DNA of 64,000 nucleotides. Origin: Eubacteriales bacterium. GTDB taxonomy: Bacteria; Bacillota; Clostridia; Oscillospirales; JAAYXM01. Below the pieces are notes generated by a model. The model was given only the letters and a program-made list of their open reading frames with translations, made no database searches and was not told the DNA's origin. Below, one piece after another: positions 9,592 to 40,810 of the stretch (position 1 is its first letter; each line of letters begins with the position of its first letter). The DNA lies in assembly GCA_045539475.1 (NCBI GenBank), contig JAZQFJ010000085.1:22320-86319 (forward strand), read 5' to 3'. Both the position numbers and the translations under genes were made by a program.

Positions 9592-9930
9592 TTATATTTT
9601 CACTCTTATTTCATTGAACATATCAAGCCATTCATGGGTGATGAGAGCATGACCTGCGGGTGTTGGATGAACTCCATCAAACGACCAATATGTCGGGTTG
9701 TTTGGGTTGTAGACAGAATCAAAATTTTCCTGAAGCGGAACAAACGAAAGCCCGAAATTTTCGGCAATACGTTTTGCTGCAACCGCTTTTTCTTCGATAT
9801 CGGCATGGAACTCGGTATAAATAGATTTATGCTTGTCCGTTTCTTCCATCGCTGGTCCGTCAAGGCAGAACGGCTCAAGAATCATTATTTTAATGTCAGG
9901 CAATGCCGTCAGAATCTCTTCAATCAACAT
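9592..9930 (-). pseudogene. SGNH/GDSL hydrolase C-terminal fragment
   Basis: 112 aa containing only the distal SGNH blocks (DGVHPTPAGH catalytic D..H). There is no GDS block, no RBS, and it starts 11 nt after the stop of the upstream gene. Confidence 0.5.
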
Positions 9931-9941
9931 TGAATGGTTTT

Positions 9942-10589
9942 TTAATTTAGGAGTATCAATTCATCATACACAACCGTGTGCTTTTCATCCGGCTCACTGT
10001 GTTCGTGGTTGTGTCCGGAGTACCAGTGCTTGTATGAAACATTATCTTCGATATATTTCTCCAATTCACCGAGTGAGGGGCAGAACGTAGCATCCGGCGG
10101 TGTCTGTTCATATTTGTGCGTAAGTATAAAATCAAACTTGAATTCATTTTCTTTTATTGTTTCATATGCAAGAGAAAGCTCCTTTGACTCCGGCTCTTCG
10201 CCCGGGTAATACAGACCAATCTTATGCCAGCCTTCCGAAGATTTGCATCCACCGAAAACAAAGAAGTTATTTCCTTGTATTTCAAAAGCATTGCCGCGCA
10301 TCAGGTGGACTATATTATCCGACAGGCGATGAACCCTGCCACCGCACCAATCTTCCTCCGGAAAGCTTTTGAGATAATCAAAGTTTTCGTGATTTCCGTC
10401 GACAATGGCTATGTTCTTCTTTATCGAAAGAAAAAAGTCAGTGAATATGCGGTTCTCTTCCGTCTTTTCGAAAGATAATCCTACATCACCGAGTATAATG
10501 AGTAAATCATTATCATCAGCTTTTGAAATATAATCTTCAAGACCTTTAAAATTCCGGTCTCCATGAATATCACTCAGCAGATATATCAT
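9942..10589 (-). CDS. metallophosphoesterase (calcineurin-like)
   Basis: SDIHGD, GDVG and DGNHEN motifs. 215 aa. Confidence 0.85.
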   Translation of the reverse strand: MIYLLSDIHGDRNFKGLEDYISKADDNDLLIILGDVGLSFEKTEENRIFTDFFLSIKKNIAIVDGNHENFDYLKSFPEEDWCGGRVHRLSDNIVHLMRGNAFEIQGNNFFVFGGCKSSEGWHKIGLYYPGEEPESKELSLAYETIKENEFKFDFILTHKYEQTPPDATFCPSLGELEKYIEDNVSYKHWYSGHNHEHSEPDEKHTVVYDELILLN

Positions 10590-11250
10590 CTCGTATCAAC
10601 CGACCTTTTCCGCTTTTTACAAGCTCAACAAATTCTTCACTTGTTTTTATCTCATAATCTGAAATCATTCCGCTTAAAGCATAGTCATTATCTCGGTGAG
10701 CATCGCTTCCGGCTGTTACATAAAGATTATATTCTTTCGCGGTTGCCACAGCCTTTTCGTTGAAGTTTTTGTGACGGGGATTTGAGTTATATGCCTCATA
10801 ACCTTCAACGTTCCGAGGATCGGTTCTTCCGTATCCCTCGCGATATGGGTGAGCTTGAACGACAAGAACTCCGTTTTCTCTCATATATGGAAAAAATTCT
10901 TCTTCAGTGCTTTGACATATATTCGGAAAGTTATAAATTATTTCGGGCGTTATACCGTACAGAAGATAATCTCCCTCAAACTTTTCAAAATGGCATTCCA
11001 CTCCCATGATTACATTTACACCGAGCTTATCGCCCTCTGTCTTTGCATTTCTGTATCCGAGAAAGAAACGGTCTACTGCGTTTTTCCATGAATTGCTGTC
11101 ATATTCGTCAAGATATTTCTGCATAAAATGGTCGGTTACAATAACCGTTTTATATCCTGCCTTATGATAGAATCTTACCATTTGCGCAGCATCTATCTGA
11201 GCACATGGGCTTGATTCCGACGTGTGTAGGTGTGTTTCGATTTTAAACAT
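10570..11250 (-). CDS. PHP-domain phosphoesterase
   Basis: THLHTSESS...QAHPYR...GSDAH motifs. I prefer ATG 11250 (GAGGA RBS) over the GTG at 11265. 20-nt overlap with the downstream gene. Confidence 0.8.
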   Translation of the reverse strand: MFKIETHLHTSESSPCAQIDAAQMVRFYHKAGYKTVIVTDHFMQKYLDEYDSNSWKNAVDRFFLGYRNAKTEGDKLGVNVIMGVECHFEKFEGDYLLYGITPEIIYNFPNICQSTEEEFFPYMRENGVLVVQAHPYREGYGRTDPRNVEGYEAYNSNPRHKNFNEKAVATAKEYNLYVTAGSDAHRDNDYALSGMISDYEIKTSEEFVELVKSGKGRLIRDDISAE

Positions 11251-11297
11251 TTTATCATTCCTCACATTAGTTTGCTTACTATGAATGGTTAGCTTTT

Positions 11298-13175
11298 TTA
11301 CTCAGACAAGAAAACAGTAGCTATTTTTTTGTGAAAATGGACACCAAGAGAAGGTGTTATGTTATCTTCTGCAAGATAGTAAAGCCGTTCCGCTTCAAGT
11401 TCCTCAATTATGTCAATTTCGCCGTTTATATACGCTGTTAGCTTTCTTATTGCCGTTTCAATACGCGCCTTTGTTCCGCCAGTGCGAAGGTCATAAACAT
11501 CAAAGCCGAATGCTTTGTTCTCTGAATTCCAAAGCTTTTCAAACTTATCGCACATATCACGATAATCAACAAGAAGAGTTTTAAGCTCTTCCGTGAGCTT
11601 TTTCAATTCATTAACATCACGATTGTCGTACGCACGTTTTATGTCTATACCGATTTCCGCCTTTTCATAAAGCACTTTTGTGAGGCTTACGTAATAATCA
11701 AACACTTTTTCAAGTCCCGGCTCTGAAATGTTCCGGAGTTCTTCGTGTTTTTTCTTGTAGTATTCTTTGAGTCCGAGTCCTTCAAAGTTTTTGTCGAATA
11801 TGCCACAAAGGATATCTTGATAAATTATTTCGCGTGAAACAGCACTTAATTTGCTTTTTTCTGCAACTGCGGGGATATTGTCGATTTCGAGTGCGAGGAA
11901 ATTATCAAGATTATGCCCTATGCATAGCTTAAACTGCCGTCTTAGATGCTCTGTATCAACCTTTTCGTAGTAGTTGTACTCTGCAAAAAGCTGTATGCCG
12001 CCGAGCATTGTGAGAACGTTCACTTCCGCTCCGTCATCACCCCACATTGTCGTTATTATGGTGTCAAGTCCTTTCTCGTGGCACACATCAAGGGCAGCAC
12101 ATGTTGTATCAAATGTTTTCTGATATCCGGGTCCCATACCGAACCATGTCCACGCACCGCCGACGAAGATGGTGTTTCTCTGCATCTTGAAATGCTTGTC
12201 TATCATAGAGTGATACATTTTCTTATCTGTGTTGTAATAATCCCAATAAGCGAGTGTTATTTCTTCGGGAATTCGCTCATGCATATTCTCGGGGATTTTT
12301 GCATCAAGGTCATAATACCAGCCATTTTTCGAGCCTAAACGGAAGAACATATCACTCCACATGATCGATTCGAATCCATACTTCTTTGAAATCTCACAAA
12401 CACGGGTGAGATGCTTTGATAAAAGCTCAAATCTGTCGCTGTCGCCGTGAAGGTCGTAATACTTGCCGCGCCCTACGAAGTGAGCTTCATCCATGCCAAT
12501 GAGTATTTTGTCCGATGAGTAAGCTGCTTTGACGGATTTAAACATAGCCTCGATAAACTTGTATGTCTTTTCTTCGTCGATAAGAAGAACGTCATCGTCA
12601 TCCCGCATCTCTGCAGCGTAGCTCCAGCGCAGAGTATTTCGCAAATGTGCAAGGGTCTGAATGCAGGGAATCATTTCAATGCCGAGTGCCTTTGCCGCTT
12701 TGTCCATTTCCTGTATTTCTGCTAATGTATATCTGCCGCGCATATATCCAAAATACGGGTATTCTTTTATTTCATATGTATCTTCGGTATAGAGCATAAC
12801 GGTATTCATACCTGCCGATGCCATCTTACCCATAAGCTTGATAACCGTTTCAACTTTTAATACGGCATTTCGTGAGCAATCCAGCATTGCTCCGCAGGCT
12901 TTCATTTTTGGCACTTCTCGTTTGCAGATATCAGTTTCGCCGCTTTCAAGCAGACCTACAAGCGTACAAACAGCACGGAAAAAGTCATTTTTTTCTGCAT
13001 ATGAAATTACGTATTTGCCGTCTTTTCCTTCTATCGAAAGACCACGCACGATTCTTTTTACGGAAACGCTTATATCTCCGGTTTCTCCGAATTTAAAGCC
13101 TCGTGTTTCGGAAACGATTAAAAGACCGTCCCAAAGGTTTTCTATCTCTTTTTTGTTAAAATGCAGTGAAATCAT
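11298..13175 (-). CDS. GH20-like beta-N-acetylhexosaminidase
   Basis: 625 aa. TIM-barrel region AMLDCSRN...MLYTED...CIQTLAHL...IGMDEAH resembles the GH20 catalytic domain with a D-E pair. Confidence 0.7.
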   Translation of the reverse strand: MISLHFNKKEIENLWDGLLIVSETRGFKFGETGDISVSVKRIVRGLSIEGKDGKYVISYAEKNDFFRAVCTLVGLLESGETDICKREVPKMKACGAMLDCSRNAVLKVETVIKLMGKMASAGMNTVMLYTEDTYEIKEYPYFGYMRGRYTLAEIQEMDKAAKALGIEMIPCIQTLAHLRNTLRWSYAAEMRDDDDVLLIDEEKTYKFIEAMFKSVKAAYSSDKILIGMDEAHFVGRGKYYDLHGDSDRFELLSKHLTRVCEISKKYGFESIMWSDMFFRLGSKNGWYYDLDAKIPENMHERIPEEITLAYWDYYNTDKKMYHSMIDKHFKMQRNTIFVGGAWTWFGMGPGYQKTFDTTCAALDVCHEKGLDTIITTMWGDDGAEVNVLTMLGGIQLFAEYNYYEKVDTEHLRRQFKLCIGHNLDNFLALEIDNIPAVAEKSKLSAVSREIIYQDILCGIFDKNFEGLGLKEYYKKKHEELRNISEPGLEKVFDYYVSLTKVLYEKAEIGIDIKRAYDNRDVNELKKLTEELKTLLVDYRDMCDKFEKLWNSENKAFGFDVYDLRTGGTKARIETAIRKLTAYINGEIDIIEELEAERLYYLAEDNITPSLGVHFHKKIATVFLSE

Positions 13176-14637
13176 AGTTTTTCCAATTCCTTTCTCGTGT
13201 GTTTTTTTGCCTATCTGTTTTAAAAACAGGTAAGAGTGAAGTATAGTTTTCTGTGATTACAGTGTCAATTCCGGAATCAAGATGTTTCTTTACGTCTTCC
13301 TGATCTCCTCTATAAAGCATACTGCACTTTATGCCGCTGCTGTGTGCAAGCAAAAGCGCTTCATATGTGTAGGATGACTCATTAAAACAGATTTTTTGAC
13401 AACCAAGGGATTTTGCTGCAGCCACAGCCTGTTTATCGAGTTTTTTCAAGCAAAGGCAAGTTACAAACTGTGGGTGTTTTTCGGAAAAAGTTTTAAGCAC
13501 ATCTTTGCTTTCAGACGAAAAATACACATATTTTTCGCAGTCATACCGATTGATGAGAGAAATAATCTTTTGGATATCTGTTATATTTTCATCTGGGATA
13601 TGTATATTCATAACTGCGTGACAAGAAAATTTTCTGAGAATTTCAGAAAGAAGCCCATCTTCACCCCCGGGTTTTATTTCAAAGGAAATTTCGTTTACAT
13701 CCAGCGCAATGGCAGCGCCGAAATAAGAAAGCATTTCCTCACAGGGAAAATCGGAAGCCGCTTTGGCGCAAAGTCGGGGATAGGACATAACGGCGTCGGG
13801 GAGAGTTATCGCGCTTCCTCCGGGACGGTAGTTCCAAGGACATCTTCCGCGCTCTACGTATTCATAGTGAGCAGCAAATTCGTTGCCAAATCCCGCCGGT
13901 TTATAATATTTTTCTTTCGGGTCAAACTCAACCGTTTCTAATCCTACACGGCTTTTCATATTAAGAAGAACCTCTCCGCAGGGTGAAACAACCATGCTCC
14001 CGCCTCCTGTGCCGGAGTTTTTGTCCATGCTTACAGATGAACGAAGAAGAAATGCGTTGCAGTTATATGCCGCAAAACGAGAAAAAAGCTCGCTTGTATC
14101 ATGCGGGTCGGAGCGCTGGTGAGAACAACCGATAATAATGTCCACATTTTGCCGTGCAATGCATGAGTAAGCCTCATAAAAATAAAAATCATAGCACGTC
14201 AGAAAGGCAAAACGAAGGCCTTCTGCTTCAATTATGTAGGGAGCAGAAGGAGTCAGTGCGTAATCGCACGAAAGTCCGCGGTTTGTCACTTCTCCGCCTG
14301 TGAGATGACGCTTGAAATACTTTCCGAAAAGCTCTCCGCTCCGATCGAAAGCAAAGGTGGTGTTTTTATTTTCTCCTATTCCGTTCACAAAGACAAATGC
14401 ACTACATCGTTTTGCGACCTGTGCCGCCTTTTCGATAAGTGCGGTGTGATAGGTTCTCACGCATTCGCGAAAAGTTTCATTTGAATCCGGCATTACGGGG
14501 ATATCGCCATACTCCGGCATAACAATAATATCGAGGCTTTCGTCGCAAAGGTCAAGCAGAGAAATCTCTGCTTTGAAAAGCTCGGCGGAACGGGAAATAT
14601 CCGTTGAATATTCAGGTTGTATGATTGCTACTTTCAC
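13156..14637 (-). CDS. carbon-nitrogen hydrolase domain fused to a GDPD-like domain
   Basis: The N-terminal ~280 aa are nitrilase-superfamily-like (MPEYG, FLTCYDFYF with Cys). The C-terminal ~200 aa resemble a glycerophosphodiester phosphodiesterase barrel, but the catalytic His is not evident. GTG start overlaps the araC stop by 26 nt. Confidence 0.55.
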   Translation of the reverse strand: MKVAIIQPEYSTDISRSAELFKAEISLLDLCDESLDIIVMPEYGDIPVMPDSNETFRECVRTYHTALIEKAAQVAKRCSAFVFVNGIGENKNTTFAFDRSGELFGKYFKRHLTGGEVTNRGLSCDYALTPSAPYIIEAEGLRFAFLTCYDFYFYEAYSCIARQNVDIIIGCSHQRSDPHDTSELFSRFAAYNCNAFLLRSSVSMDKNSGTGGGSMVVSPCGEVLLNMKSRVGLETVEFDPKEKYYKPAGFGNEFAAHYEYVERGRCPWNYRPGGSAITLPDAVMSYPRLCAKAASDFPCEEMLSYFGAAIALDVNEISFEIKPGGEDGLLSEILRKFSCHAVMNIHIPDENITDIQKIISLINRYDCEKYVYFSSESKDVLKTFSEKHPQFVTCLCLKKLDKQAVAAAKSLGCQKICFNESSYTYEALLLAHSSGIKCSMLYRGDQEDVKKHLDSGIDTVITENYTSLLPVFKTDRQKNTRERNWKNYDFTAF

Positions 14638-15451
14638 TGATAAAAACCTCTTCTTTTCTTTGCTTTTTCAGAAATTCCGTAGGAGACATTCCTGCGTGTT
14701 TTTTGAATACACGTGAGAAGTAATATGGGTTGCAAAAACCTACTTCATTTGCAGTTTGGGAAATGGAAACGAGTTCGCTTCTGAGGAGTTCTTTTGCGCG
14801 CTCGATCTTTTTTGTATTTAAATATTCAACGGGCGATTTGCCGAAATGCTGTTTGAAGATAGCTCGGAAGTACGCTTCTCCAATACCGCACATAGCCGCC
14901 AATTGCTCGATTTTCATATCGCGTTCGCAGTAGTTTTCCTGAATATAAAGAACCGCAGGGTTGAGCAGGTTTGATTTTTTTGACGGCACGTATTCGCGCT
15001 CGGATCCGGTAAGAAGCAACGACAGTATTTCATACAAGTCACGCAGGTTTTTGATTTGATAAAGATGCGGCTTATGAACGAGCCGTTTTTCAATTTTATT
15101 GAATAAAGATATTATCTTGCTGTTGTCGGAAATTTCAAAAAGAAAGAGAGTATCTGCTTCCGATAAAGCCTGAAACTCAATGATGAGGCATTCTCCCTGG
15201 ACAAGACACGAACGGCTGTAAGAAGATCCGCGTGGCAGAATGATAAGATGATTTTTGTCTATTGTATACGAACCAGAGGGAGTCACGTATTCGGTTATGC
15301 CTTCTGCTTTTATAACCAGTGCCCATGTTCTGCGCGAATCGTTTACCGGTCTGTTTTTCGTAACAGGTCCTTCGCCGCTGATGCGTATCGCGGAATATAT
15401 GTCAGAAATTTTAATATCGCTCAGTGTATCGTTTTTTATATCGGTTGTCAT
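14612..15451 (-). CDS. AraC family transcriptional regulator
   Basis: Cupin-like N-terminus plus C-terminal double HTH (FRAIFKQHFGKSPVEYL...ANEVGFCNPYYFSRVFKKHAGMSPTEF). AGGAGG RBS. Confidence 0.9.
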   Translation of the reverse strand: MTTDIKNDTLSDIKISDIYSAIRISGEGPVTKNRPVNDSRRTWALVIKAEGITEYVTPSGSYTIDKNHLIILPRGSSYSRSCLVQGECLIIEFQALSEADTLFLFEISDNSKIISLFNKIEKRLVHKPHLYQIKNLRDLYEILSLLLTGSEREYVPSKKSNLLNPAVLYIQENYCERDMKIEQLAAMCGIGEAYFRAIFKQHFGKSPVEYLNTKKIERAKELLRSELVSISQTANEVGFCNPYYFSRVFKKHAGMSPTEFLKKQRKEEVFISESSNHTT

Positions 15452-15583
15452 AAAGTACCTCCTTTTTGTTTTTGAAAATAATTATGCCGGAAGGTATAGT
15501 CTCAGTATAGAATATTTTAATTTGAAAATCAAGATGGGGAGCAAATAAAGAGTCGCGAATAAGACAAATCCACGAATTGGACA

Positions 15584-15612
15584 TTTACTTTGCTTTATGA
15601 AACGTCTATACT
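15584..15612 (+). promoter_or_regulatory. candidate sigma-A promoter for the EEP/giant-enzyme operon
   Basis: TTTACT, 17-nt spacer, TATACT, about 50 nt upstream of ATG 15664. Pattern match only. Confidence 0.3.
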
Positions 15613-15663
15613 AAAATTAACAAGCGATTACACTTTCTTAACATTTATTTTGCGGAGGCAAAA

Positions 15664-16425
15664 ATGAAGCTTAAACTTATGACTTATAACATATGGGGTG
15701 GAAAATGCTATAAAGAGTATCTCGGCGGAACGCCGGAGGCAGAATGCACGCGCGATACGGCTCCGGTTGCGCAGGTTATAAAAGCGGCCGATGTAGATGT
15801 TGTTTCGCTTAATGAAGTTTTCAACTGTACCGCTTACGGAAACCAGACCGAACAAATTGCGCGCCTTGCCGGTTTTCCGTATTATCACTTTTCGTCTGCG
15901 CTTGAGCGTTCTGTCATAGGTGGATTTTATGGAAATGCAATCATTTCAAAATACCCGATTGTTAAAATTGAAGAAAAAGTGATTGCCGCAGAAACCGGAG
16001 TAAGACTTTCGGAGCAAAGAGTTGTTTTTTGTGCAACGCTTGATTGTAACGGGAAGATGCTTGATGTTATCATAAGTCATTTCGGACTTATCCAAGAAGA
16101 AAAGCAAAGGGCAGCCGATGCGGTGTTGGATTTTGCGAGCAGATCCGGTAACAAATGCGTGTTTATGGGGGATATGAACAGCATTCGTGAGTCGGTCCAC
16201 GCAGAACGGTTAAAGACATCATTTAGTATAGCAAACGAGAAGGATGAGCTTGTGACCTGGCCTGCTGAATATACTCCACCTGAGCGTCAGCACTTTTCTT
16301 CTCCGCTGTGGAACCGTCAGATAGACTTTATTTTTGTCAGTGACGGTATTAGCGTGAACAAAACCGAAGCGATTTATTCGCTTGCATCCGACCACAAGCC
16401 GCTTTGCGCTGATGTCGAGATTTAA
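15664..16425 (+). CDS. endonuclease/exonuclease/phosphatase (EEP) family protein
   Basis: LMTYNIWGG, VVSLNEV, GDMNS and SDHKPL motifs. 253 aa. Confidence 0.85.
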   Translation: MKLKLMTYNIWGGKCYKEYLGGTPEAECTRDTAPVAQVIKAADVDVVSLNEVFNCTAYGNQTEQIARLAGFPYYHFSSALERSVIGGFYGNAIISKYPIVKIEEKVIAAETGVRLSEQRVVFCATLDCNGKMLDVIISHFGLIQEEKQRAADAVLDFASRSGNKCVFMGDMNSIRESVHAERLKTSFSIANEKDELVTWPAEYTPPERQHFSSPLWNRQIDFIFVSDGISVNKTEAIYSLASDHKPLCADVEI

Positions 16426-16451
16426 GAATTTGATGTGAAGGAGAATTTAAA

Positions 16452-23819: not shown

Positions 23820-23826
23820 CAGAAAA

Positions 23827-23887
23827 AGAGAGGGGCAAGCTTGAATTTAGTGTTTCGCTCCTGAGTTTTTCCAAGCCCCTCTCTTTT
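23827..23887 (+). terminator. long-loop terminator after the giant gene
   Basis: AGAGAGGGGC / GCCCCTCTCT stems with a 38-nt loop and a short T run. Confidence 0.5.
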
Positions 23888-23926
23888 CTAAATAAATCTT
23901 ATAAAATTACGCGAGGAGAAAACTAA

Positions 23927-25027: not shown

Positions 25028-25093
25028 GTAATAAATCGGTTAGCACACTTATGTGTTAATATAAAAAACAAACCTAAGGAGGATAAACAAAAA

Positions 25094-26653: not shown

Positions 26654-26692
26654 GAGCTGCGAAAATTATAAGAAAATAAGGAGAGATATACA

Positions 26693-29413: not shown

Positions 29414-29423
29414 TATATACGAA

Positions 29424-29461
29424 AAATGCGGCGGGGCATTATCACGCCTCGCCGCATTTTT
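29424..29461 (+). terminator. rho-independent terminator
   Basis: AAATGCGGCGGGGC / GCCTCGCCGCATTT (one mismatch) followed by a T run. Confidence 0.8.
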
Positions 29462-29489
29462 CATAACAGAAGTTAACGGGTGAAGAATC

Positions 29490-30440
29490 ATGATTAAAGT
29501 TGGTCTTATAGGTTGCGGAAAGATAAGCGCAGACCACATTTCCTCTTTTGAAAAGCTGGAGGATGCAAAAATAGTCGCAGCGTGTGACTTAAACGAAGAA
29601 AATCTTTCCGTGGTTGTTGAAAAAACAGGCGCAAAAGCATATACAGATTATAAAGAAATGCTTGAGGTAGAAAAGTTTGACCTTGCGGTTATAACCTTGC
29701 CGCATTTTCTACATTGTGAGGCAACGTGCACCGCGGCAGAACACGGTGTTAATGTGTTTATCGAAAAGCCGATGGGAATGAATGTTTCCGAATGCGAAAA
29801 GATGATTGATGTATGCGAGAAAAACAATGTTATGCTGTGGGTGGGAGACCCTCAGCGTTATCACGGCGGAAATATTGTCGCAAAAGAGCTTATAAACTCG
29901 GGAGAGTATGGCTCTCTTATTGCAATCTCTGAAACTCGCTGTACAAACTATTTCGCGGACTGGCGTCCGAAATGGTTTTTAAATAAGAAAACAAGCGGTG
30001 GCGGGATTCTTATGAATCTCGGTGCCCATACGATAGATAGAATAAAATACCTTACCGACAGTGACATTTGTGATCTCCATGGTAAAATACATATCCGCGA
30101 CGGCTATGACGTAGAAGATACGGCACAGGTGTTCGGCGTTACCGAAAGCGGAGTTTCAGTTACAATGAACCTTGCGGGAAATGCCGAAAGCGGACATTAC
30201 GCAACGTATCTCTACCTCACGGGCGGAGAAATCCGCATAACTTCATATTGCTCGCGCGTTTCTGCGTGCAAGGCGGGCGGAGTGTTTAAGTATTTTGACG
30301 TACCGCAGACACCTGTCATGCATGCACAGATTGCAGATGTAGTACGCACCCTGAAATCCGGTAAAAAACCGACGGTCAGCGGGGAATACGGGAAAGAAAT
30401 AATTCGTGTAGTTGAGCATGTTTATGATATGAATGTATAG
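29490..30440 (+). CDS. Gfo/Idh/MocA family oxidoreductase
   Basis: GLIGCGKIS Rossmann motif. 316 aa. Confidence 0.85.
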   Translation: MIKVGLIGCGKISADHISSFEKLEDAKIVAACDLNEENLSVVVEKTGAKAYTDYKEMLEVEKFDLAVITLPHFLHCEATCTAAEHGVNVFIEKPMGMNVSECEKMIDVCEKNNVMLWVGDPQRYHGGNIVAKELINSGEYGSLIAISETRCTNYFADWRPKWFLNKKTSGGGILMNLGAHTIDRIKYLTDSDICDLHGKIHIRDGYDVEDTAQVFGVTESGVSVTMNLAGNAESGHYATYLYLTGGEIRITSYCSRVSACKAGGVFKYFDVPQTPVMHAQIADVVRTLKSGKKPTVSGEYGKEIIRVVEHVYDMNV

Positions 30441-30494
30441 TGTGAAAAAGAAGAGCTGTAATAATTAACAACGAACACAGAGAGGAAATCAAAC

Positions 30495-32477
30495 ATGACA
30501 GCATTAACCTTTGAAAAAATGACTATTCCCTCGGCAAATTTTGGGGGAGTGAGTTCACTTCCGATACTCGGGCTGAAACTTTCAGGACGAGATTTTGTAA
30601 AATTCAATTTCCCTGAAAATGAGGGGCTTTATATGAATTACGGAAAGGTTTATTGTGCGTTTCCGTATAGGGCTCAGGATATGTATGATCGCGCACTTAA
30701 TGAAAAGGAATATGAGACGGCAGTGCTCGAAAATGACAATCTCAGAGCAGTGTTTTTTCCGTCATTGGGAGGAAAGTTGTGGTCACTTATCGATAAAAAA
30801 ACAGGACGCGAACTTCTTTTTAAAAATAATGTTGTCCGTCCTTGCAACCTTGCTGTAAGAAATGCATGGACATCGGGTGGCGTTGAGTGGAATATGGGTT
30901 TCTTGGGGCACAGCCCGATGACATGCTCTCCGATAAACACAGCAAGAACTGCCCTTGCAGACGGAACTCCTGTGCTTCGTTTTTATTGGTTTGAACGCAT
31001 CCGCGCGTGCATTGCGCAAATGGATATTTTTCTTCCTGAAAAGTCCGAGGTTTTATATGTCAGAACACGCTTGACAAACCCGAATAATGATACTGTACCA
31101 ATGTATTGGTGGAGCAATATCGCAACGGTTCAGGAGCGTGGTTCTCGAGTTATAGTACCGGCTACAGAGGCATATGTTTCAAAAAAAGGAATCTATTGCA
31201 AAGAAGAAATTCCGATGTATAATGGAGTGGACGTTACATACCCGTTGAACAGCTCAACCGCCCACGACTATTTTTGGAAAACGCAGGATGATAAGCTTAA
31301 ATACATTTGCCAGCTTGATGCTGATGGCTACGGACTTGCAACAACATCAACCGACATATTGCGAGGCAGAAAACTTTTTGTATGGGGAGACACACAGGGT
31401 GGCAGGCGTTGGCAGAATTTCCTGACGCGCGACGGAGAAAGCGGAAGCTATAATGAGATTCAAGTAGGGCTTGCAAGAACACAGCTTGAAAGTCTGCCCA
31501 TGCCACCGCGCACTGTCTGGGAATGGGTGGAAACATACGGAGCAATGCAGGCAGATAAGGAGAAAGTGCATGGCGACTGGGCAGATGCACGGGCAGAAGT
31601 AGAAGCAATTTTTGCAGAGAAGATAACAAAGGAAAAACTCAATAAAATTCTTGAAGAAACGCAAGAGATGGCAAAAAAGTGTGCTGAAACGGTAACTTTA
31701 CACGATGGCTGGGCAAGACTTGAGGAAATGCGAAGGAAAAAAACAACAGAAGGTGACCTTATGTGTCCGCATCTTGATTTCGCGGAAACGCAGGAAGAAC
31801 AGAGCGTTTGGTTAAAGCTTTTGAATGAGGGAACCGTGGGAAGCCATACTCCTGATGCCGTTCCTGTTTCCTATCAGATTCAGTCAGAATGGCTTGAATT
31901 GCTCGAGAACGCAATAGAGGATAAAGACAGGAATAATTGGTATGCATACTATCTCCTTGGAACAGCAGAAGCGGCAAAGAAAAATTGCAAAAAAGCAAAA
32001 ACATATCTTGAAAAATCATTAGAACTCACAGATTCAACTTGGGCGAATTATGCTCTTGCAACTGTCTTTGAACAGGAGGGCGATTTGGAAAGCTATGAAA
32101 AATATATGCTTAAAGCCTATGAAATGAGAAACTATGATATTTCGCTTGCAAAAGAGGTGTTTCGTTGTGTTCATAATGCAGGAAAGCCTGAAAAGAATAT
32201 AGAACTGTTTGAATGTGCGGCAGAAAACGTAAAGGCAAATACGCGCTGTTTAATTTATTATGCCTATGCGCTTGCACGTTGCGGAAGAATTGATGAGGCG
32301 GAAAAAATTATTGCAGATGAGAGAAATTGCATAGTAATTCCTGATATAAAAGAGGGCGAAACGATTACAACAGAGATTTGGGATTACATGAACGAAAGGC
32401 GTGCAGAGAGCGGACTTGAGATGCTTGAAATTCCACATGAGCTTGATTTTCGTATGTCTTATAATATCGCAAAATGA
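30495..32477 (+). CDS. uncharacterised protein with C-terminal TPR-like repeats (possibly DUF5107-like)
   Basis: 660 aa. No signal peptide. The C-terminal third is helical-repeat-like (YYLLGTAEAAKKN...YALATVFEQEGDLESYEKY). The family name is from memory only. Confidence 0.6.
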   Translation: MTALTFEKMTIPSANFGGVSSLPILGLKLSGRDFVKFNFPENEGLYMNYGKVYCAFPYRAQDMYDRALNEKEYETAVLENDNLRAVFFPSLGGKLWSLIDKKTGRELLFKNNVVRPCNLAVRNAWTSGGVEWNMGFLGHSPMTCSPINTARTALADGTPVLRFYWFERIRACIAQMDIFLPEKSEVLYVRTRLTNPNNDTVPMYWWSNIATVQERGSRVIVPATEAYVSKKGIYCKEEIPMYNGVDVTYPLNSSTAHDYFWKTQDDKLKYICQLDADGYGLATTSTDILRGRKLFVWGDTQGGRRWQNFLTRDGESGSYNEIQVGLARTQLESLPMPPRTVWEWVETYGAMQADKEKVHGDWADARAEVEAIFAEKITKEKLNKILEETQEMAKKCAETVTLHDGWARLEEMRRKKTTEGDLMCPHLDFAETQEEQSVWLKLLNEGTVGSHTPDAVPVSYQIQSEWLELLENAIEDKDRNNWYAYYLLGTAEAAKKNCKKAKTYLEKSLELTDSTWANYALATVFEQEGDLESYEKYMLKAYEMRNYDISLAKEVFRCVHNAGKPEKNIELFECAAENVKANTRCLIYYAYALARCGRIDEAEKIIADERNCIVIPDIKEGETITTEIWDYMNERRAESGLEMLEIPHELDFRMSYNIAK

Positions 32478-32499
32478 TACAATTGGAGGTGTCAGTTTT

Positions 32500-33171
32500 T
32501 TGACAGAAATATATTTTATCCGTCATGCGGAATCCACCGGTAATATGACAGGTTGCGCCTATGGTTGGTATGATGGCCTCGTAGCACCGAATGGATATGA
32601 ACAGATTAAGCGTCTTGAAAAAAGATTTGAAAATATAAAAGTGGATGCGGTGTATTCAAGCGACCTTATAAGAGCTGTAAAAACCGCCGAGGCAATACAT
32701 AAGCCAAAAGGTCTTGCTCTGAATAAAGATACGGGGCTTCGTGAAATGAATCTCGGTGCATGGGAGAACAAAAAGTGGGAAGAGCTTCCGTCTGCTTTTC
32801 CGGAAGAGCATAAGCTCTGGACAAGCGACCCGTTAAACTTCAGTGTTGAAGGCAGTGAAACTTACCGCGAGGTATATGACCGTATGCGCCGGACTTTTGA
32901 CAGAATCGTTGCCGAAAACGACGGAAAAACCGTCGCGATTGTAGCTCACGGCGTTGCACTTCGTATACTTATGTACGGCATTCTGAACAACGGTGACCTT
33001 TCGGGCATTGCCGGGTTTGGATGGGGAGACAACACATGTGTAAGTCACTTTACGGCAGATGGCGGAAAGCTGAAATCTGTTTTTGTAAATGATAATTCCC
33101 ATCTTAAGGATATGCCCGGATTTAAGAAAAGCACGACATGGGGAAGTACAAGAGAAAGCGTGTTGCTTTAG
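32500..33171 (+). CDS. histidine phosphatase family protein (phosphoglycerate mutase-like)
   Basis: IYFIRHAESTGN catalytic RHG-type motif and a distal AHG. TTG start at 32500, 8 nt after GGAGGTG. The track ORF extends upstream to 32401 inside the previous gene. Confidence 0.8.
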   Translation: MTEIYFIRHAESTGNMTGCAYGWYDGLVAPNGYEQIKRLEKRFENIKVDAVYSSDLIRAVKTAEAIHKPKGLALNKDTGLREMNLGAWENKKWEELPSAFPEEHKLWTSDPLNFSVEGSETYREVYDRMRRTFDRIVAENDGKTVAIVAHGVALRILMYGILNNGDLSGIAGFGWGDNTCVSHFTADGGKLKSVFVNDNSHLKDMPGFKKSTTWGSTRESVLL

Positions 33172-33202
33172 ATGGATAAGAGGGAATTGGAGGTAAATGT
33201 AT

Positions 33203-35248
33203 ATGAAAAGCAAAGTAAATGATATTTTATCAAAGCTTACACTTGATGAAAAAATCTCACTTCTGACGGGTGGAGATTATATGGCAACGGTCGGGCTTGA
33301 ACGTTTCGGTCTCAAACCTAAAAGAATGGCAGATGGACCTCACGGTGTGCGTAAAGATTCGGCAACCGGAGCCAACTCGCGTGAAGAAGCGGAAAGTAAC
33401 TGCACAGCTTTTCCAAATCTTTGCCTTGCTGCGGCAACATGGGATAAAGAGCTTATACATAAAATGGGCGTGGCGCTTGCGAAAGACTGTATCCACAACG
33501 ATGTTGATATGCTTTTAGGACCGGGTGTGAACATAAAGCGGCACGCCCTCTGTGGAAGGAATTTTGAGTATTTCTCGGAAGACCCCGTTCTCGCGGGAGA
33601 AATGGCGGCTGCATACATAAACGGACTCCAAGGCCTCGGGGTTGCGGCATCGCTTAAGCACTATGCCGCTAACAATCAGGAAAAATACCGCCTTACAACA
33701 AGTGTGGATGCAGATATGCGGACGCTTATGGAAATTTATCTCAAGGCGTTTGAAATCGCAATTAAAAAGTCATCTCCGGCAACCGTTATGTGTGCGTACA
33801 ACAAGATTCATTCCGTCTGGTGTTCCGAAAACAAGTTTTTGCTTACCGAAGTTCTTCGCGATTCATGGGGATATAACGGTGTTGTAGTCTCTGACTGGGG
33901 GGCTGTGCATAATTCGGCGAAGGCTGTTTCGGCAGGTCTTGATTTGCGTATGCCAAAGGGAAAAGATTTTGTAAAGGATATAAAAGAAGCTCTTGAGAAT
34001 GGCGTAATAACGGAAGAAGAAATCGAAATCTCGGCAAAAAGAATGATAGAGCTTTTGATGATGATTCCTGAAACTAATATAAGCTATGACAGAGATGAAC
34101 AGCATAAGGTTTGCCGTGAGGTTGCAGCAGAAGGAATGGTGCTTCTCAAAAACCGTGATAACACATTGCCGATAACACCTGATAAGTATAAAAAGGTTGC
34201 TATCATAGGTGAATTTGCAAAATCACCGCTGATATTTGGGCAGGGAAGTGCCGAGGTTCATGTTTCCGATGATTATATCGATTCACCGATTGATGAGCTT
34301 CGTAAGCTTTGCGGAGATGAAATTGAGTTTAAATATATGGAGCTTTACAAGAAAGATGCATTTTTAAAGGAAATGCTTTGGTTAAAGCATCCGGAATTCG
34401 CGAAGTTCATTGCAGACACAGATCTTGTCATTATGTTTGTGGGTGCAATGGAATCCGAGGATACTGAGAAGCTTGATCGAAGGTGCGCAGAGCTTAATCA
34501 GAACTACGAAATGTTTATCAACTTTGCACTTATGGATAATAAAAAGGTTGTTGTTGTTAATCAGTCCGGTTCTGCAATGACCTTTGACAGATGGACGAAC
34601 GACGTTGACGCCGTCGTTCAAATGTGGCTCGGCGGCGAAAGTGCAGGCGGCGCAATAGCAGATGTTTTGTGCGGCATCGTTAACCCGTCGGGAAAGCTTT
34701 CCGAAACATTTCCGAAGAAAATAAGAGCTGATATCGAGTTTCCGGGAAATGACCTTACCGTAGAGTATAACGAGCGTATCTTTGTTGGATACAGATATTA
34801 TGATATGCATCCGGAAGAAATCGTATATCCTTTCGGCTATGGACTGTCATATACCACATTTGAGTACAGCAATATAGAAGTTTCGGAAAAGGATAATTCT
34901 CTGGAAATCACATTTGACATAAAAAATACAGGCGATATAGACGGCGCTGAAGTTGCGCAGGTGTATGTCGGGGACCCTGTATCTACGGTCAAGCGTCCGG
35001 TGAAGGAATTAAAAGCATTTGAAAAAGTTTTCCTGAAAGCCGGCGAAAGAAAATCAGTAGCGCTTAATGTGGATATAAAGGATATAGGCTATTATAATGT
35101 AATTTTAAAAAACTGGATAACAGAACCGGGAAAATATGTAATATATGTCGGTTCATCCTCAAGAGACATCCGCCTTAAAAAGTCAATTATTCTCCGAAAT
35201 GATGTTCCTTATACAATCGCGCCGACCGGCGAGGATATGATAGGATAA
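33203..35248 (+). CDS. GH3 beta-glucosidase/beta-hexosaminidase-type glycoside hydrolase
   Basis: LKHYAANNQE and VVSDWGA (nucleophile Asp) motifs, plus a C-terminal FnIII-like domain. ATG 33203 has better RBS spacing than 33197. Confidence 0.9.
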   Translation: MKSKVNDILSKLTLDEKISLLTGGDYMATVGLERFGLKPKRMADGPHGVRKDSATGANSREEAESNCTAFPNLCLAAATWDKELIHKMGVALAKDCIHNDVDMLLGPGVNIKRHALCGRNFEYFSEDPVLAGEMAAAYINGLQGLGVAASLKHYAANNQEKYRLTTSVDADMRTLMEIYLKAFEIAIKKSSPATVMCAYNKIHSVWCSENKFLLTEVLRDSWGYNGVVVSDWGAVHNSAKAVSAGLDLRMPKGKDFVKDIKEALENGVITEEEIEISAKRMIELLMMIPETNISYDRDEQHKVCREVAAEGMVLLKNRDNTLPITPDKYKKVAIIGEFAKSPLIFGQGSAEVHVSDDYIDSPIDELRKLCGDEIEFKYMELYKKDAFLKEMLWLKHPEFAKFIADTDLVIMFVGAMESEDTEKLDRRCAELNQNYEMFINFALMDNKKVVVVNQSGSAMTFDRWTNDVDAVVQMWLGGESAGGAIADVLCGIVNPSGKLSETFPKKIRADIEFPGNDLTVEYNERIFVGYRYYDMHPEEIVYPFGYGLSYTTFEYSNIEVSEKDNSLEITFDIKNTGDIDGAEVAQVYVGDPVSTVKRPVKELKAFEKVFLKAGERKSVALNVDIKDIGYYNVILKNWITEPGKYVIYVGSSSRDIRLKKSIILRNDVPYTIAPTGEDMIG

Positions 35249-35281
35249 AAAGTTGTTTCTTGTTAAGAAAGGAAAAGAAAA

Positions 35282-37156
35282 ATGAAGCTCGAAAATATGT
35301 TTTTTGAAGTCAGATATGTTGATGCAAAGGGAGAAGCTTTTGAGATTTCTTCAAAATCACAAATAAATTCAGAAACCGATAAGTATGCAAAAAAGTATGC
35401 TGAAAAAGTGATTTCCGGCTGCTCGTCCGATGGTGAACTTGTAAGTGTAAATCTTAACTTGTCCGTGCCTGAAAGCATCCGTGAAAAGCTTGGTGAGCAT
35501 TTTTGCGATAACGAAGAGTGCTATGCAGTAGAAATCACGACGGATGAGGTAAATCTTTATGCATTGTCGGATAACGGACTTACTTACGCCGTATCAACGC
35601 TTCTTCAGCTTATTGAAAGCGGAAATGTTCGTGAAATGCTTCTGTTTGACTATCCTGATAAGAAGGTGCGCGGATATCGTGTATATACTCCGGGGCGTGA
35701 GAGCTTTGAAGCCTTCCGCAATGTAGTTGATATGCTTGTATACTATAAGTATAATGCAATAATGCTTGAAGTTGGTGGTGCGATGGAATATAAACGCCAT
35801 CCCGAGATAAACGAAAAATGGGTGGAGTTCTGCAAGGAAGTAAACAAAACTCCGTATGAGGCAGAGCGAATCCAGAAAAAGACGCATCCCGAGTGGCAGA
35901 AGAACTCAATTCATGCAGATAATGGCAATGGATCATTTATAACGCAGGCTGAAATGCGCGAGCTTATAGCATATTGCCGCGAGCGCGGGCTTCGCGTCAT
36001 GCCGGAGGTTCCGTCGCTTTCTCACTGTGATTATATCGTTATGGCGCATCCTGACATCAAAGAGCGCGCTGAGGATACATATCCCGATACATACTGCCCG
36101 TCAAATCCGAAGTCATACGAGCTTGTATTTGATATTCTCGATGAGGTAATCGACGTTTTTGAGCCGGAGTATGTAAACATCGGCCACGATGAATGTTACA
36201 CTCTCGCAAAATGCCCTCTTTGCCGAGATAAGGACCCGGTGGATTTGTACGTTGGAGATATCGAAAAGATAAATAATTACCTGAAAGCTAAAGGCATAAA
36301 AAGTATTATGTGGGCAGAAAAATTCTTTGATAATATCTATCTGCCTGAACCGGATGGTTCAATCCACGGTTACGGCGGAACAGGAGATCCGGCGTGGGAT
36401 GTACCGAGGTGTATCGACTGTGTCGGAAAGGTACCGAAAGATATATTGCTGTTCCATTGGTATTGGTCACTTTGTACGGGAAAGGAAGAAAAGGATATCC
36501 GTGACCTCGGATATAAGATGCTTTTCGGGAATTTCCAGGCTACATCGCTTAAGAACTATCGTGAAAGAAGTAATGACATAGAAGGTGCCTTTATCAGCAA
36601 CTGGGGGTCGTTTGAACCGCAGTATATGCAGCGTAATGCGCAGAACTACAACCTGACGTCAACTGCATATATTCTTTGGAACAGTGAATATGATTCGGAT
36701 ATGATGGATATGGTTGTTGATAAGGTAAAGGATGAGCTTTATCGAAGACACAAAAAAACACTCGGTAATGATATTATCGAGCTTGTCCATACGACGGACC
36801 ATAACAGACCGTACAAGGTATTCTATGACGGTTTCTATATTGTTCCTGAGGATTGGGAAATCGGAAAGCATATTGTTACATATACCGACGGAACAACGGC
36901 AGAGCTTCCTGTAATATTTGGGTATAATATTCGCTCAAGCTCGGAAAAAATCAGTGTAGACAGCGGCTCAACCGAAGCAAAATCAACAGCGTATGTAGAA
37001 ACTTTGGGTGCATCTATTCCTGTTGTCATTGACAGAAAAGCATATTACAAAACAGCATATAAAAACCCCTATCCGGAAAAAACAATAGAAAAAATAGAGT
37101 GCATTGCATATGACGGCATAAACATAGAAGCAAGCTATGATCTTGCCGTGAAATGA
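35282..37156 (+). CDS. GH20-like glycoside hydrolase
   Basis: 624 aa. TIM-barrel region YNAIMLEVGG...PEVPSLSHCDY...NIGHDECY resembles the GH20 catalytic core. Confidence 0.6.
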   Translation: MKLENMFFEVRYVDAKGEAFEISSKSQINSETDKYAKKYAEKVISGCSSDGELVSVNLNLSVPESIREKLGEHFCDNEECYAVEITTDEVNLYALSDNGLTYAVSTLLQLIESGNVREMLLFDYPDKKVRGYRVYTPGRESFEAFRNVVDMLVYYKYNAIMLEVGGAMEYKRHPEINEKWVEFCKEVNKTPYEAERIQKKTHPEWQKNSIHADNGNGSFITQAEMRELIAYCRERGLRVMPEVPSLSHCDYIVMAHPDIKERAEDTYPDTYCPSNPKSYELVFDILDEVIDVFEPEYVNIGHDECYTLAKCPLCRDKDPVDLYVGDIEKINNYLKAKGIKSIMWAEKFFDNIYLPEPDGSIHGYGGTGDPAWDVPRCIDCVGKVPKDILLFHWYWSLCTGKEEKDIRDLGYKMLFGNFQATSLKNYRERSNDIEGAFISNWGSFEPQYMQRNAQNYNLTSTAYILWNSEYDSDMMDMVVDKVKDELYRRHKKTLGNDIIELVHTTDHNRPYKVFYDGFYIVPEDWEIGKHIVTYTDGTTAELPVIFGYNIRSSSEKISVDSGSTEAKSTAYVETLGASIPVVIDRKAYYKTAYKNPYPEKTIEKIECIAYDGINIEASYDLAVK

Positions 37157-37167
37157 GGAAAAAAGAA

Positions 37168-38058
37168 ATGCTCGTCAAGAAAATTGATATTCACGTCCAC
37201 ACAACCTTTTGGGCAGATGATATGCAGCGCTTTAATGGCGCGAGATTTGCTACTCCGGAAGAGCTTTGCGAGATATATGACCGTATGGGAATAGAACTCG
37301 GTGTACTTTTGCCGGCAGTAAACCCCGAAGCAGCTTTTCACAACAACACAAACCGCGATTGTTGTGAAATTGCGGAAAGGTATCCTGAAAGATTTGTGTG
37401 GTTCTGTAACATAGACCCTCGCATGGGAAAGAATTCACCCGATACAGATTTCACACATTTTTTGGAATACTATAAGGCTCAGGGGGCAAAAGGTGTGGGA
37501 GAGGTTACTGCAAATATGTATTTTGATGACCCGATGGTTGAAAATCTCTTTTCTCACGCGGAAAAGGCAGGACTTCCGGTAACGTTTCATATAGGAAATC
37601 CGGGCAACGACATTGGGCTTATTGATGAAGTGGGGCTTCCGCGCCTTGAAAAAGCGTTGCAGAAATTTCCGAAGCTTATTTTTCTCGGTCATTCACAGAA
37701 ATTCTGGGCAGAGATAAGCGGTGAAGTAGGAAATCGTGACGGCTATCCCAAAGGTGAAGTTCTTCCGGGTGGAAGGCTTATTGAGCTTATGAGAAAATAT
37801 CCAAATCTTCATGGCGATTTGTCATCGGGGAGCGGGCAAAATGCAATTATGCGCGATCCGGCCTTCGGTTATAAGTTCTTGGATGAGTTTCAAGACAGGC
37901 TCTACTTCGGCACGGATATTTGTACGCCCAATCAATGGGAGCGTCTTGTGCTTTCGGAATTCCTCGACAATGCGGTTGAAAACAGCCATATCTCGCAGGA
38001 GTGCTACAACAAGGTGTGCCGTGAAAATGCAATAAGACTTCTTAAACTAGATGATTAA
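37168..38058 (+). CDS. amidohydrolase family (Amidohydro_2-like) metal-dependent hydrolase
   Basis: IDIHVHT metal-binding motif. GAGGA RBS precedes ATG 37168. An alternative ATGA-overlap start exists at 37153. Confidence 0.75.
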   Translation: MLVKKIDIHVHTTFWADDMQRFNGARFATPEELCEIYDRMGIELGVLLPAVNPEAAFHNNTNRDCCEIAERYPERFVWFCNIDPRMGKNSPDTDFTHFLEYYKAQGAKGVGEVTANMYFDDPMVENLFSHAEKAGLPVTFHIGNPGNDIGLIDEVGLPRLEKALQKFPKLIFLGHSQKFWAEISGEVGNRDGYPKGEVLPGGRLIELMRKYPNLHGDLSSGSGQNAIMRDPAFGYKFLDEFQDRLYFGTDICTPNQWERLVLSEFLDNAVENSHISQECYNKVCRENAIRLLKLDD

Positions 38059-40802: not shown

Positions 40803-40810
40803 TTTGTAGT

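Follow-up and report, generated by a model that had tools for sequence, protein, structure and literature searches.

Why should a single glycan locus be so rich in phosphoesterase folds? The question is raised by positions 9592-38058 of a 64,000-nt stretch of DNA from a bacterium of the Eubacteriales (contig JAZQFJ010000085.1, assembly GCA_045539475.1), which we call the window. An earlier note, made from the sequence alone, had counted five phosphoesterase superfamilies beside two GH20-like enzymes in this locus and had proposed a phosphate-bridged polymer of the teichoic-acid type as the substrate. We mapped the open reading frames (ORFs) of the window and scanned them with Pfam and NCBIfam models. 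Judged by their motifs, four of the phosphoesterase folds (MPE, PHP, EEP and HisPhos, listed below) are intact and the fifth, GDPD-like, is a relic. The association of phosphoesterases with glycosidases is genuine, though it is limited to one narrow group of gut Clostridia. We regard it as quite possible, and hold it tentatively, that this is a mosaic catabolic locus in which a surface depolymerase is coupled to cytoplasmic stripping of phosphate and amide groups, which would enable trimming by GH20 and GH3 enzymes. All 17 genes of the locus, including the phosphoesterases, the GH20, GH3 and Gfo enzymes and the amidohydrolase, were recovered in place and with the folds assigned to them:

9592-9930, minus strand: GDSL-like esterase remnant (112 aa, profile positions 92-178 of 178)
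9942-10589, minus strand: metallophosphoesterase, MPE (Metallophos, 215 aa)
10570-11250, minus strand: PHP-domain metallohydrolase, PHP (PHP + PHP_C, 226 aa)
11298-13175, minus strand: GH20a, a GH20C/GcnA-type beta-N-acetylhexosaminidase (625 aa)
13156-14637, minus strand: C-N hydrolase (CN_hydrolase) fused to a GDPD-derived domain, CNhyd
14612-15451, minus strand: AraC-family regulator (Pfam)
15664-16425, plus strand: EEP-fold phosphoesterase, EEP (Exo_endo_phos, 253 aa), first gene of a long operon
16452-23819, plus strand: giant exported enzyme (2455 aa, Hepar_II_III_C and three SLH domains)
23927-25027, plus strand: Gfo/Idh/MocA oxidoreductase A, GfoA (GFO_IDH_MocA, 366 aa)
25094-26653, plus strand: solute-binding lipoprotein, SBP (519 aa)
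26693-29413, plus strand: secreted protein p906 (906 aa, no Pfam match)
29490-30440, plus strand: Gfo/Idh/MocA oxidoreductase B, GfoB (GFO_IDH_MocA, 316 aa)
30495-32477, plus strand: DUF5107 + TPR protein (660 aa)
32500-33171, plus strand: histidine phosphatase, HisPhos (His_Phos_1, 223 aa)
33197-35248, plus strand: GH3 exo-glycosidase (BglX/arabinopyranosidase-like)
35282-37156, plus strand: GH20b hexosaminidase (GH20b N-domain, 624 aa)
37153-38058, plus strand: Amidohydro_2 metal hydrolase (301 aa)

The genes of each strand overlap or are tightly packed, with gaps of -26 to +107 nt (-4 to +107 nt on the plus strand), and the promoter and terminator scans of the locus, otherwise uninformative, detected no strong internal terminator. 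The AraC gene and the EEP operon are transcribed divergently, with 212 nt of intergenic DNA between them, and the locus is probably under AraC control. The MPE, PHP, GDPD, EEP and HisPhos domains were absent from the other 23 large ORFs scanned in the window.

The four intact folds were assigned on the following grounds. MPE belongs to PF00149 (E 5.6e-12, 46.9 bits against a cut-off of 21.5), and the metal-binding motifs DIHGD, GDVG, GNHE and GHNH are complete in its translation. PHP, whose gene overlaps the MPE gene by 20 nt, belongs to PF02811 (29.4 bits against 26.4; PHP_C, 29.2 against 21.3) and carries the motifs HLH, AHP and GSDAH. In public collections it occurs as the 226-aa form starting at the ATG at 11250, and no NCBIfam model exceeded its cut-off with this protein. 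EEP belongs to PF03372 (E 8.7e-21, 75.1 bits), and N9, E51, D170, N172, D243 and H244 were invariant in an alignment of 32 sequences. HisPhos belongs to PF00300 (E 6.7e-50, 169.9 bits) with the motifs IRHAES (RHAES) and AHG. Its best NCBIfam model, CobC, scored 135.6 bits, below the cut-off of 162.9, and no specific function was assigned. Sequence searches of the PDB returned no match for MPE, PHP or p906, and a match for EEP only at E 0.05.

The structure of EEP allows one comparison with a known system. The AF2 model of EEP (pLDDT 95.8) matched EEP folds at E 1e-17 to 1e-13 and grouped with the Tdp2/BT3783 branch, the mannosyl-6-phosphatase BT3783 being among the nearest solved structures (TMq 0.72-0.73). 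BT3783 and BT2630 are EEP-fold sugar phosphatases of the yeast-mannan polysaccharide-utilisation loci (PULs) of B. thetaiotaomicron (PMC4978465; PDB 3MPR/4C1R). Both systems place an EEP-fold phosphatase gene in a glycan locus; the Mg-dependent removal of phosphate that unblocks exo-glycosidases is established for BT3783, whereas for the window protein the likeness is one of fold. The differences are considerable. The two proteins are only 14-16% identical. The recombinant BT3783 construct was the mature protein, residues 27-314 (PMC4978465), which would imply a cleaved signal peptide, whereas the window EEP has none. The window belongs to Gram-positive-type Clostridia with an SLH/ABC logic instead of a Sus-type one, it has GH20 and GH3 enzymes where the yeast-mannan PULs have mannosidases, and it has four phosphoesterase folds where they have one.

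The GDPD-like domain is of a different kind. Homology of this C-terminal half of the C-N hydrolase to GDPD is supported at the sequence level, by a weak match to a glycerophosphodiesterase model (E 6e-5) and by homologs of the fusion at 45-50% identity that carry PF03009. In the alignment, C-AHRG-F, APENS, EIEFDLW and DGE.VS.HD, which are the canonical motifs, can be read in these relatives. In the window protein and the nine sequences nearest to it, CA-KAAS and NEISFEIK are found instead, and a deletion of about 35-60 aa takes out the HD segment. The catalytic residues of B. subtilis GlpQ are His43, Arg44 and His85, the last of which lies on the small GDPD insertion domain, and its Ca ligands are Glu70, Asp72 and Glu152 (PMC7086022). 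Compared with GlpQ, the window domain has lost both His residues, the insertion domain and one metal ligand, has Lys in place of Arg, and is left without the catalytic residues expected of PF03009. It is best read as a degenerate TIM barrel, a pseudo-enzyme appendage on an amidase whose nitrilase-superfamily triad (E42, K109 and C148) is invariant in the alignment. The count of five superfamilies thus stands for MPE, PHP, EEP and HisPhos and fails for the degenerate GDPD-like domain. A dead GDPD domain on an intact amidase is a clean pseudo-enzyme example, and it illustrates that fold-level annotation overcounts activities.

Are the phosphoesterases tied to the glycosidases, or do they merely lie beside them? 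A genome scan for the giant-enzyme family gave 496 confirmed loci, the best 78 of which (L001-L078) were fetched. We compared the window with these and with further fetched loci, numbered in the same way. The related arrangements were:

L001 and L171/172 (orthologous; 66-93% identity): GH20a-CNhyd-AraC / EEP-giant, MPE-PHP absent; in L001 the giant gene is followed by an AP_endonuc_2-like ORF, GfoA and SBP
L168 (EEP 79%): Fic-MPE-PHP-GH20a (split)-AraC / EEP-giant, CNhyd deleted
L079 (EEP 75-77%): EEP-giant-SBP-p906-like-GfoB, EEP directly upstream of the giant gene
L084/85 (EEP 62%): GH20a-CNhyd-AraC / EEP / another GH20, no giant enzyme
L173 (CNhyd 62%): GfoB / CNhyd-GH20a
L080 operon, first part: AP_endonuc_2 - EEP 61% - GfoB 79% - AP_endonuc_2 - PHP - MPE 55%
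L080 operon, second part: DUF5107 45% - GH20b 57% - HisPhos 85% - beta-lactamase-fold esterase - CNhyd 72%

The operon of L080 unites orthologs of seven window genes with a PHP gene and has no giant enzyme; its PHP is not orthologous to that of the window (BLASTP E 0.016). An MPE ortholog is present in L080 (55%) and L168 (100%) and absent from L001 and L171, and PHP is 99% identical in L168. Orthologs of GH20a (72-92%) occur in L001, L171, L084/85, L173 and L168. The divergent AraC/EEP pair is kept in L001, L168, L171 and L084-87, and EEP is linked to AraC, CNhyd and GH20a in L001, L171 and L084/85 and to AraC and GH20a in L168. The C-N hydrolase adjoins GH20a in five arrangements, usually together with EEP. 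GfoA is 93% identical in L001 and absent from L079, and GfoB has orthologs (75-89%) in L079, L080 and L173. The stable nucleus is therefore CNhyd-GH20a with AraC/EEP, and the recurrent satellites are GfoB, MPE-PHP, DUF5107-HisPhos and GH20b.

As a background, we searched 2707 ORFs in 1.09 Mb of the 78 giant-family loci with the window phosphoesterases (phmmer); this comparison is at the level of sequence, not of superfamily, and the pooling of five folds as 'phosphoesterases' was an after-the-fact grouping of the earlier note. Outside the ortholog L001, the 76 sister loci gave no MPE, no EEP and no HisPhos match, and only three weak PHP matches and one weak CN-hydrolase match. The linkage was kept through extensive reordering, and the presence of the phosphoesterases beside the glycosidases is not a matter of chance. 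The earlier note had taken a lack of joint conservation in relatives as a refutation; joint conservation was found in L080, L001, L171, L168 and L084/85. A functional link between phosphoesterases and hexosaminidases is partly supported. The proposed tie to glycan degradation thus holds as far as conserved linkage to hexosaminidases goes, and support for a specific polymer did not emerge.

Two broad families were tried as markers of this module and rejected. The C-N hydrolase/GDPD fusion family has at least 2760 matches, and its gene neighbourhoods are those of Beta_elim_lyase and uronate catabolism instead of GH20/EEP; module membership is limited to a subclade at 62% identity or more. The DUF5107 family is likewise broad, with 80 metagenome loci at 37-57% identity that have none of these phosphoesterases. 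Its closer loci L089, L094 and L112 have GH20C-type neighbours and no phosphoesterases, and the PDB match of the window protein is an unannotated TPR protein (5cd6).

The glycosidases and their partners were assigned from the same scans. Both GH20 proteins are recognised as such: GH20a with 37.3 bits for GH20 and 167.7 bits for Glyco_H_20C_C (E 3.7e-49), its Asp-Glu pair lying in GMDEA, and GH20b with 64.5 bits plus the GH20b N-domain, its Asp-Glu pair lying in GHDEC. GH20a has the same domain set as S. pneumoniae GH20C and S. gordonii GcnA (Glyco_H_20C_C, GcnA_N) and no signal peptide; it differs from them in adjoining, or in L085 being fused to, the C-N hydrolase with the dead GDPD domain, and in its link to EEP. 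In L085, positions 62-3487 form a single in-frame ORF of 1141 aa from CNhyd and the GH20C-type gene, which are separate in the sister contig L084. This ORF is possibly a gene fusion, which would favour functional coupling, or possibly an assembly or sequencing artefact. By NCBIfam, the GH3 enzyme is BglX/arabinopyranosidase-like and not NagZ-like. The best match of GfoB was a UDP-GlcNAc 3-dehydrogenase model, below its cut-off. The Amidohydro_2 gene overlaps GH20b by 4 nt, and homologs of it (45-57% identity) adjoin five paralogous giant genes.

Among the proteins of the locus, predicted export signals are confined to the giant enzyme, p906 and SBP (a lipoprotein signal). The phosphoesterases, both GH20 enzymes, the GH3 and Gfo enzymes, DUF5107 and Amidohydro_2 have no signal peptide and begin directly with the catalytic domain. 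Phosphoesterases without signal peptides would act on imported or intracellular molecules and cannot depolymerise an external phosphate-bridged polymer.

What, then, would act outside the cell? The giant enzyme consists of a signal peptide, two binding/Ig modules of about 500 aa, Big domains, a lyase-fold catalytic module of about 1100 aa (aa 1010-2110), He_PIG, a Gly/acidic linker and three SLH domains. The AlphaFold model of the catalytic module (pLDDT 85.8, built on 35 homologs) had the PL17 alginate lyase Alg17c as its top match (E 1.6e-24, TMt 0.69-0.71), followed by PL40 ulvan lyase, PL39, PL15, PL12, PL33 and PL21, all at identities of 16% or less. A profile of the family also reached PL17 (E 1e-10); the matching part is the GHGHxD...HNT segment of Hepar_II_III_C. 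In this model, the module has the (alpha/alpha)-toroid plus beta-sandwich fold of polysaccharide lyases, the two-domain fold of Alg17c (4OJZ), Uly1040 (9VTK), Dp0100 (6JPN), Atu3025 (3A0O), HepC (4MMH), BtPL33HA (8R70) and heparinase II (2FUQ). Unlike these lyases, it has an invariant four-Cys ribbon near its N-terminus (C55, C58, C84 and C87 of the module) and a further C-terminal beta domain, and it is embedded in a 2455-aa SLH-anchored protein with many paralogs per genome. The invariant E451...Y455-N456 aligns with the DGYYNEGPYYQRY segment of the PL17 lyase, in a non-significant segment of the alignment, and the catalytic Tyr is plausibly conserved as Y455. The candidate Asn precedes an invariant Phe (N390-F391, in GNFG) where lyases have Asn-His. 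Lyase chemistry is therefore likely, not established.

The three SLH domains (E 5.8e-30) lie in a region that matches the SLH part of the S-layer protein Sap. The signal peptide, the SLH triplet and a pyruvylation gene nearby point to an SLH-anchored protein of the cell surface. The pyruvylation gene is part of positions 55332-60912 of the window, where the order is a Wzy_C ligase-like gene, a 740-aa fusion of GT4 and polysaccharide pyruvyl transferase (57519-59741, CsaB-like) and another GT gene. These genes probably serve the pyruvylation of a secondary cell-wall polymer, to which SLH domains like the three in the giant enzyme bind. The secreted p906 is a paralog of the N-terminal binding modules of the giant enzyme (53% identity to module 1, E 8e-92). 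Single metagenome-assembled genomes (MAGs) held 12 (SIG480), 12 (RGIG3057) and 15 (T1900044574) paralogs among the best 78 loci, that is, at least 12-15 per genome. The MAGs of the family are Oscillospiraceae/Eubacteriales of goat and human gut, and the window itself matches the goat-cecum Oscillospiraceae MAG RGIG1800 at 99% (L002). Of the 78 family loci, 15 have an SBP homolog after the giant gene, and a HexNAc theme recurs in six sister loci, which are accompanied by GH20C-type genes. The lyase-fold family appears to be uncharacterised.

These results can be joined into one tentative scheme. It builds on folds, intact motifs, predicted localisation, linkage and conservation, and we infer every substrate and every reaction in it. 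An exported Unit A, made up of the SLH-anchored giant enzyme, the binding-module paralog p906 and SBP, would depolymerise an acidic HexNAc-containing heteroglycan at the surface, and its SBP would pass the oligosaccharides to an ABC importer whose genes lie elsewhere. The cytoplasmic Unit B would start with EEP, MPE, PHP and HisPhos, which would take phosphate mono- or diester decorations off the imported oligosaccharides, and with the C-N hydrolase, which as an amidase would take off a substituent bound through an amide. The chain would then be open to trimming by the exo-acting GH20 and GH3 enzymes, and the Gfo enzymes and Amidohydro_2 would process the freed sugars. To our knowledge, phosphorylated glycans of microbes or of the host are a poorly mapped class of gut nutrient, with few dedicated enzymes described beyond the Bacteroides mannan phosphatases. 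Should the coupling hold, the locus would supply a testable set of enzymes for an amino-sugar glycan that carries phosphate: four phosphoesterase folds, an amidase and two GH20 enzymes. The Clostridia of ruminant and human gut that have it are abundant and uncultured, and the lyase-fold giant family probably shapes their diet.

The same gene content had led to the proposal of a phosphodiester-bridged HexNAc polymer (teichoic-acid-like, a phosphoglycan or a phosphorylated capsule) with a backbone cleaved by the five phosphoesterases. Several phosphoesterase folds co-conserved with two GH20 genes would suit it. The beta-lactamase-fold esterase of L080 and the GDSL remnant of the window would fit the removal of (D-alanyl) esters, and a Gram-positive-type organism of the goat gut (as the MAGs suggest) lives amid abundant microbial cell-wall debris. 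Yet none of the phosphoesterases is exported, whereas the teichoicase GlpQ acts on the wall polymer outside the cell. The sole exported catalyst has a lyase fold of the uronate-lyase type, and no glycerol or ribitol catabolic genes or phosphate-uptake (Pst-type) genes were found in the locus by the Pfam and NCBIfam scans. B. subtilis GlpQ and PhoD do offer a likeness, a GDPD-family domain in the context of Gram-positive cell-wall-polymer turnover, and the GlpQ mechanism is exolytic (PMC7086022). The window domain differs from GlpQ in being cytoplasmic, fused to an amidase and without the His-Arg pair, the His-bearing insertion domain and one Ca ligand (PMC7086022). Among the five folds, GDPD is the one most specific for the cleavage of glycerophosphodiesters or teichoic acids. 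Because the GDPD domain is dead, the phosphoesterases are cytoplasmic and the exported enzyme is lyase-fold, the teichoic-acid-type model is weakened, and we consider it quite unlikely.

Several observations weigh against the coupling of a surface depolymerase to cytoplasmic phosphate and amide stripping, and a first group of them concerns mosaicism. MPE-PHP, absent from L001 and L171, is far more similar in L168 than the surrounding DNA. By blastn, two segments of the window meet without a gap in L168 4781-7412, namely 38374-39221 (Fic, 95%) and 9938-11642 (MPE-PHP, 98.65%). The rest of the L168 locus is 82-89% identical to the window, and the L168 block is circularly permuted relative to it. 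MPE-PHP(-Fic) looks like a recently exchanged and exchangeable cassette. The HisPhos segment shows 86% nucleotide identity to L080, compared with 66-76% for its neighbours. In L080, a 49-aa remnant of a DUF5107 C-terminus (9027-9173, 73% identity) precedes HisPhos (9198-9869), although a full DUF5107 gene lies 2 kb upstream; this HisPhos looks like a recent exchange, with the footprint of a transferred DUF5107-HisPhos segment. In addition, the module carriers are all close relatives (gut Oscillospiraceae-like metagenome contigs), and shared ancestry inflates co-conservation. A second group concerns function. The fold likeness of the EEP model to BT3783 is only moderate, Tdp2 and sphingomyelinases score equally well, and EEP homologs at 31% identity or less lie in unrelated or housekeeping gene contexts. 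Import is assumed, and no permease (BPD_transp_1) or ABC ATPase gene was found among the scanned window ORFs. No GH88/GH105 or KduI/KduD genes for unsaturated uronates were found in the locus, which is odd for a lyase. Finally, His202 of Alg17c (of the Asn201-His202 pair) appears to correspond to Phe391 of GNFG, a reading of ours for which we used the H202L and Y258A mutant entries of Alg17c and the non-significant alignment segment.

The mosaicism raises the alternative that the phosphoesterases do unrelated housekeeping (nucleotide, cofactor or sugar-phosphate metabolism) and came near the glycosidases by way of recombination hot spots. The elevated identities of MPE-PHP and HisPhos, the variable presence of MPE-PHP among close relatives and the contexts of the distant EEP homologs would all agree with this, as would the direct repeats and the mobile and defence DNA that bracket the locus (see below) and the sub-threshold likeness of HisPhos to CobC and of the L080 AP_endonuc_2 protein to CbiR. 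However, the linkage outlasts extensive reordering at 45-79% protein identity (L080, L084 and L173), and the PHP fold recurs through non-orthologous replacement. The genes lie in operons in which they overlap or directly adjoin those of the glycosidases, and the 76 equally mosaic sister loci in the same genomes gathered no such genes. PADLOC also assigned no defence system except Fic. We judge hitch-hiking to be rather unlikely. The mosaic identities indicate cassettes exchanged among related genomes, which tempers the co-conservation argument and does not cancel it.

Another possibility is that Unit B works as a pathway in its own right, degrading a small amino-sugar glycoconjugate that is phosphorylated and N-acylated, and that the giant enzyme was inserted secondarily; lipid-A-like beta-1,6-GlcN disaccharide phosphates, wall-polymer linkage units and inositol-phosphate glycolipids are candidates. 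EEP is directly followed by GfoB in L080, whereas the giant gene, GfoA, SBP and p906 intervene in the window, and L084/85 and L173 have the nucleus without a giant gene. The combination of amidase, esterase-type genes, phosphatases and beta-hexosaminidases would also match the full breakdown of such a conjugate. Against this, the five loci whose EEP orthologs are closest (window, L001, L171, L168 and L079) all have EEP directly before the giant gene, at a distance of 26 nt in the window. No lipid-handling or transporter genes were found, and the argument is drawn from gene content alone. We consider such autonomy distinctly improbable. It is equally doubtful in our view that the Unit B nucleus is an undescribed pathway for phosphorylated, N-acylated amino-sugar conjugates of microbial envelopes that is plugged into one member of the expanded SLH-anchored lyase-fold family, which on this reading may allow these gut Oscillospiraceae to specialise on glycans of microbial surfaces. 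The substrates of the pathway would be, for example, wall-polymer linkage units, phospho-substituted capsule fragments or lipid-A-like GlcN disaccharide phosphates.

In its overall design, the locus is a Gram-positive-type glycan-utilisation locus built from uncharacterised families. It shares with Gram-positive PULs an AraC regulator, an SBP lipoprotein, an exported depolymerase and cytoplasmic exo-glycosidases in one cluster, so that regulator, SBP and carbohydrate-active enzymes are present together. It differs from them in the missing transporter permease and ATPase among the scanned ORFs, in its unusual phosphoesterase complement, and in its mobile and defence flanks and 41-nt repeats. 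Literature searches returned nothing relevant on DUF5107, on PULs with EEP and GH20, on SLH heparinases of Oscillospiraceae or on teichoic-acid loci with GH20 and GDPD.

Three other readings were set aside. Inositol catabolism was dropped, as IolG-like matches were below threshold and no other iol genes were found. Cobamide remodelling, suggested by the sub-threshold CobC- and CbiR-like matches, would leave the two GH20 enzymes, the GH3 enzyme and the giant enzyme unexplained; the CobC-like match of HisPhos and the CbiR-like match in L080 are probably generic fold matches. An anti-phage defence reading of MPE, PHP and Fic was rejected. PADLOC gave MPE a weak PDC-S10 match (E 2e-5) and PHP, EEP, HisPhos and CNhyd no match, and assigned only the neighbouring Fic (PDC-S04/SoFic).

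Some minor features of the locus and its relatives were also recorded. The GDSL remnant retains only the C-terminal part of the profile, and the catalytic-Ser block is missing; the N-terminal half has no room because the remnant sits 11 nt downstream of the MPE gene. Homology to L168 ends exactly at this remnant. In L171, positions 11621-13543 (SIG480-like) hold two ORFs of 323 and 308 aa in the MPE-PHP position downstream of GH20a; neither has a recorded Pfam hit or an NCBIfam match. The AP_endonuc_2 gene at 2670-3503 of L080 is CbiR phosphodiesterase-like (46.7 bits against a cut-off of 105). A module of about 270-300 aa without a Pfam match (VDFTKTTL...GYEIN...TINVEVATAGYYSPELIYG...GDFAIYIN) occurs twice in the giant enzyme (16452-19478) and twice in p906, and it is a candidate for a new carbohydrate-binding module family.

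Finally, the locus is flanked almost exactly by two copies of a 41-nt direct repeat (ATGAGTGGCAGGGGCAGAG..CATATCCACAAT), which are 90.5% identical over 42 nt (blastn):

9477-9517, plus strand: left copy of the direct repeat
38345-38385, plus strand: right copy of the direct repeat

These were the sole two matches in the window, with 0 expected in shuffles, and a 17-nt core of the repeat was absent from 175 fetched loci. Rfam and tRNA scans aimed at the repeat or a possible integration site found nothing. The right copy lies in a hairpin between Amidohydro_2 and a convergent Fic gene. Three origins are conceivable for the repeat: it may mark a 28.8-kb mobile block as an att-like site, be a scar of recombination, or stem from a join made in the assembly. 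On either side, 4400-9500 and 38400-55300 are low-GC (34-41%) mobile and defence DNA. Its genes include ParE, DUF5906, DUF6076, Fic (PADLOC PDC-S04/SoFic-like), a BnzA-like ORF and Amidoligase_2 with GATase, and further a resolvase, a type I restriction-modification system with RhuM between hsdS and hsdM, a second Fic gene and a large serine recombinase.

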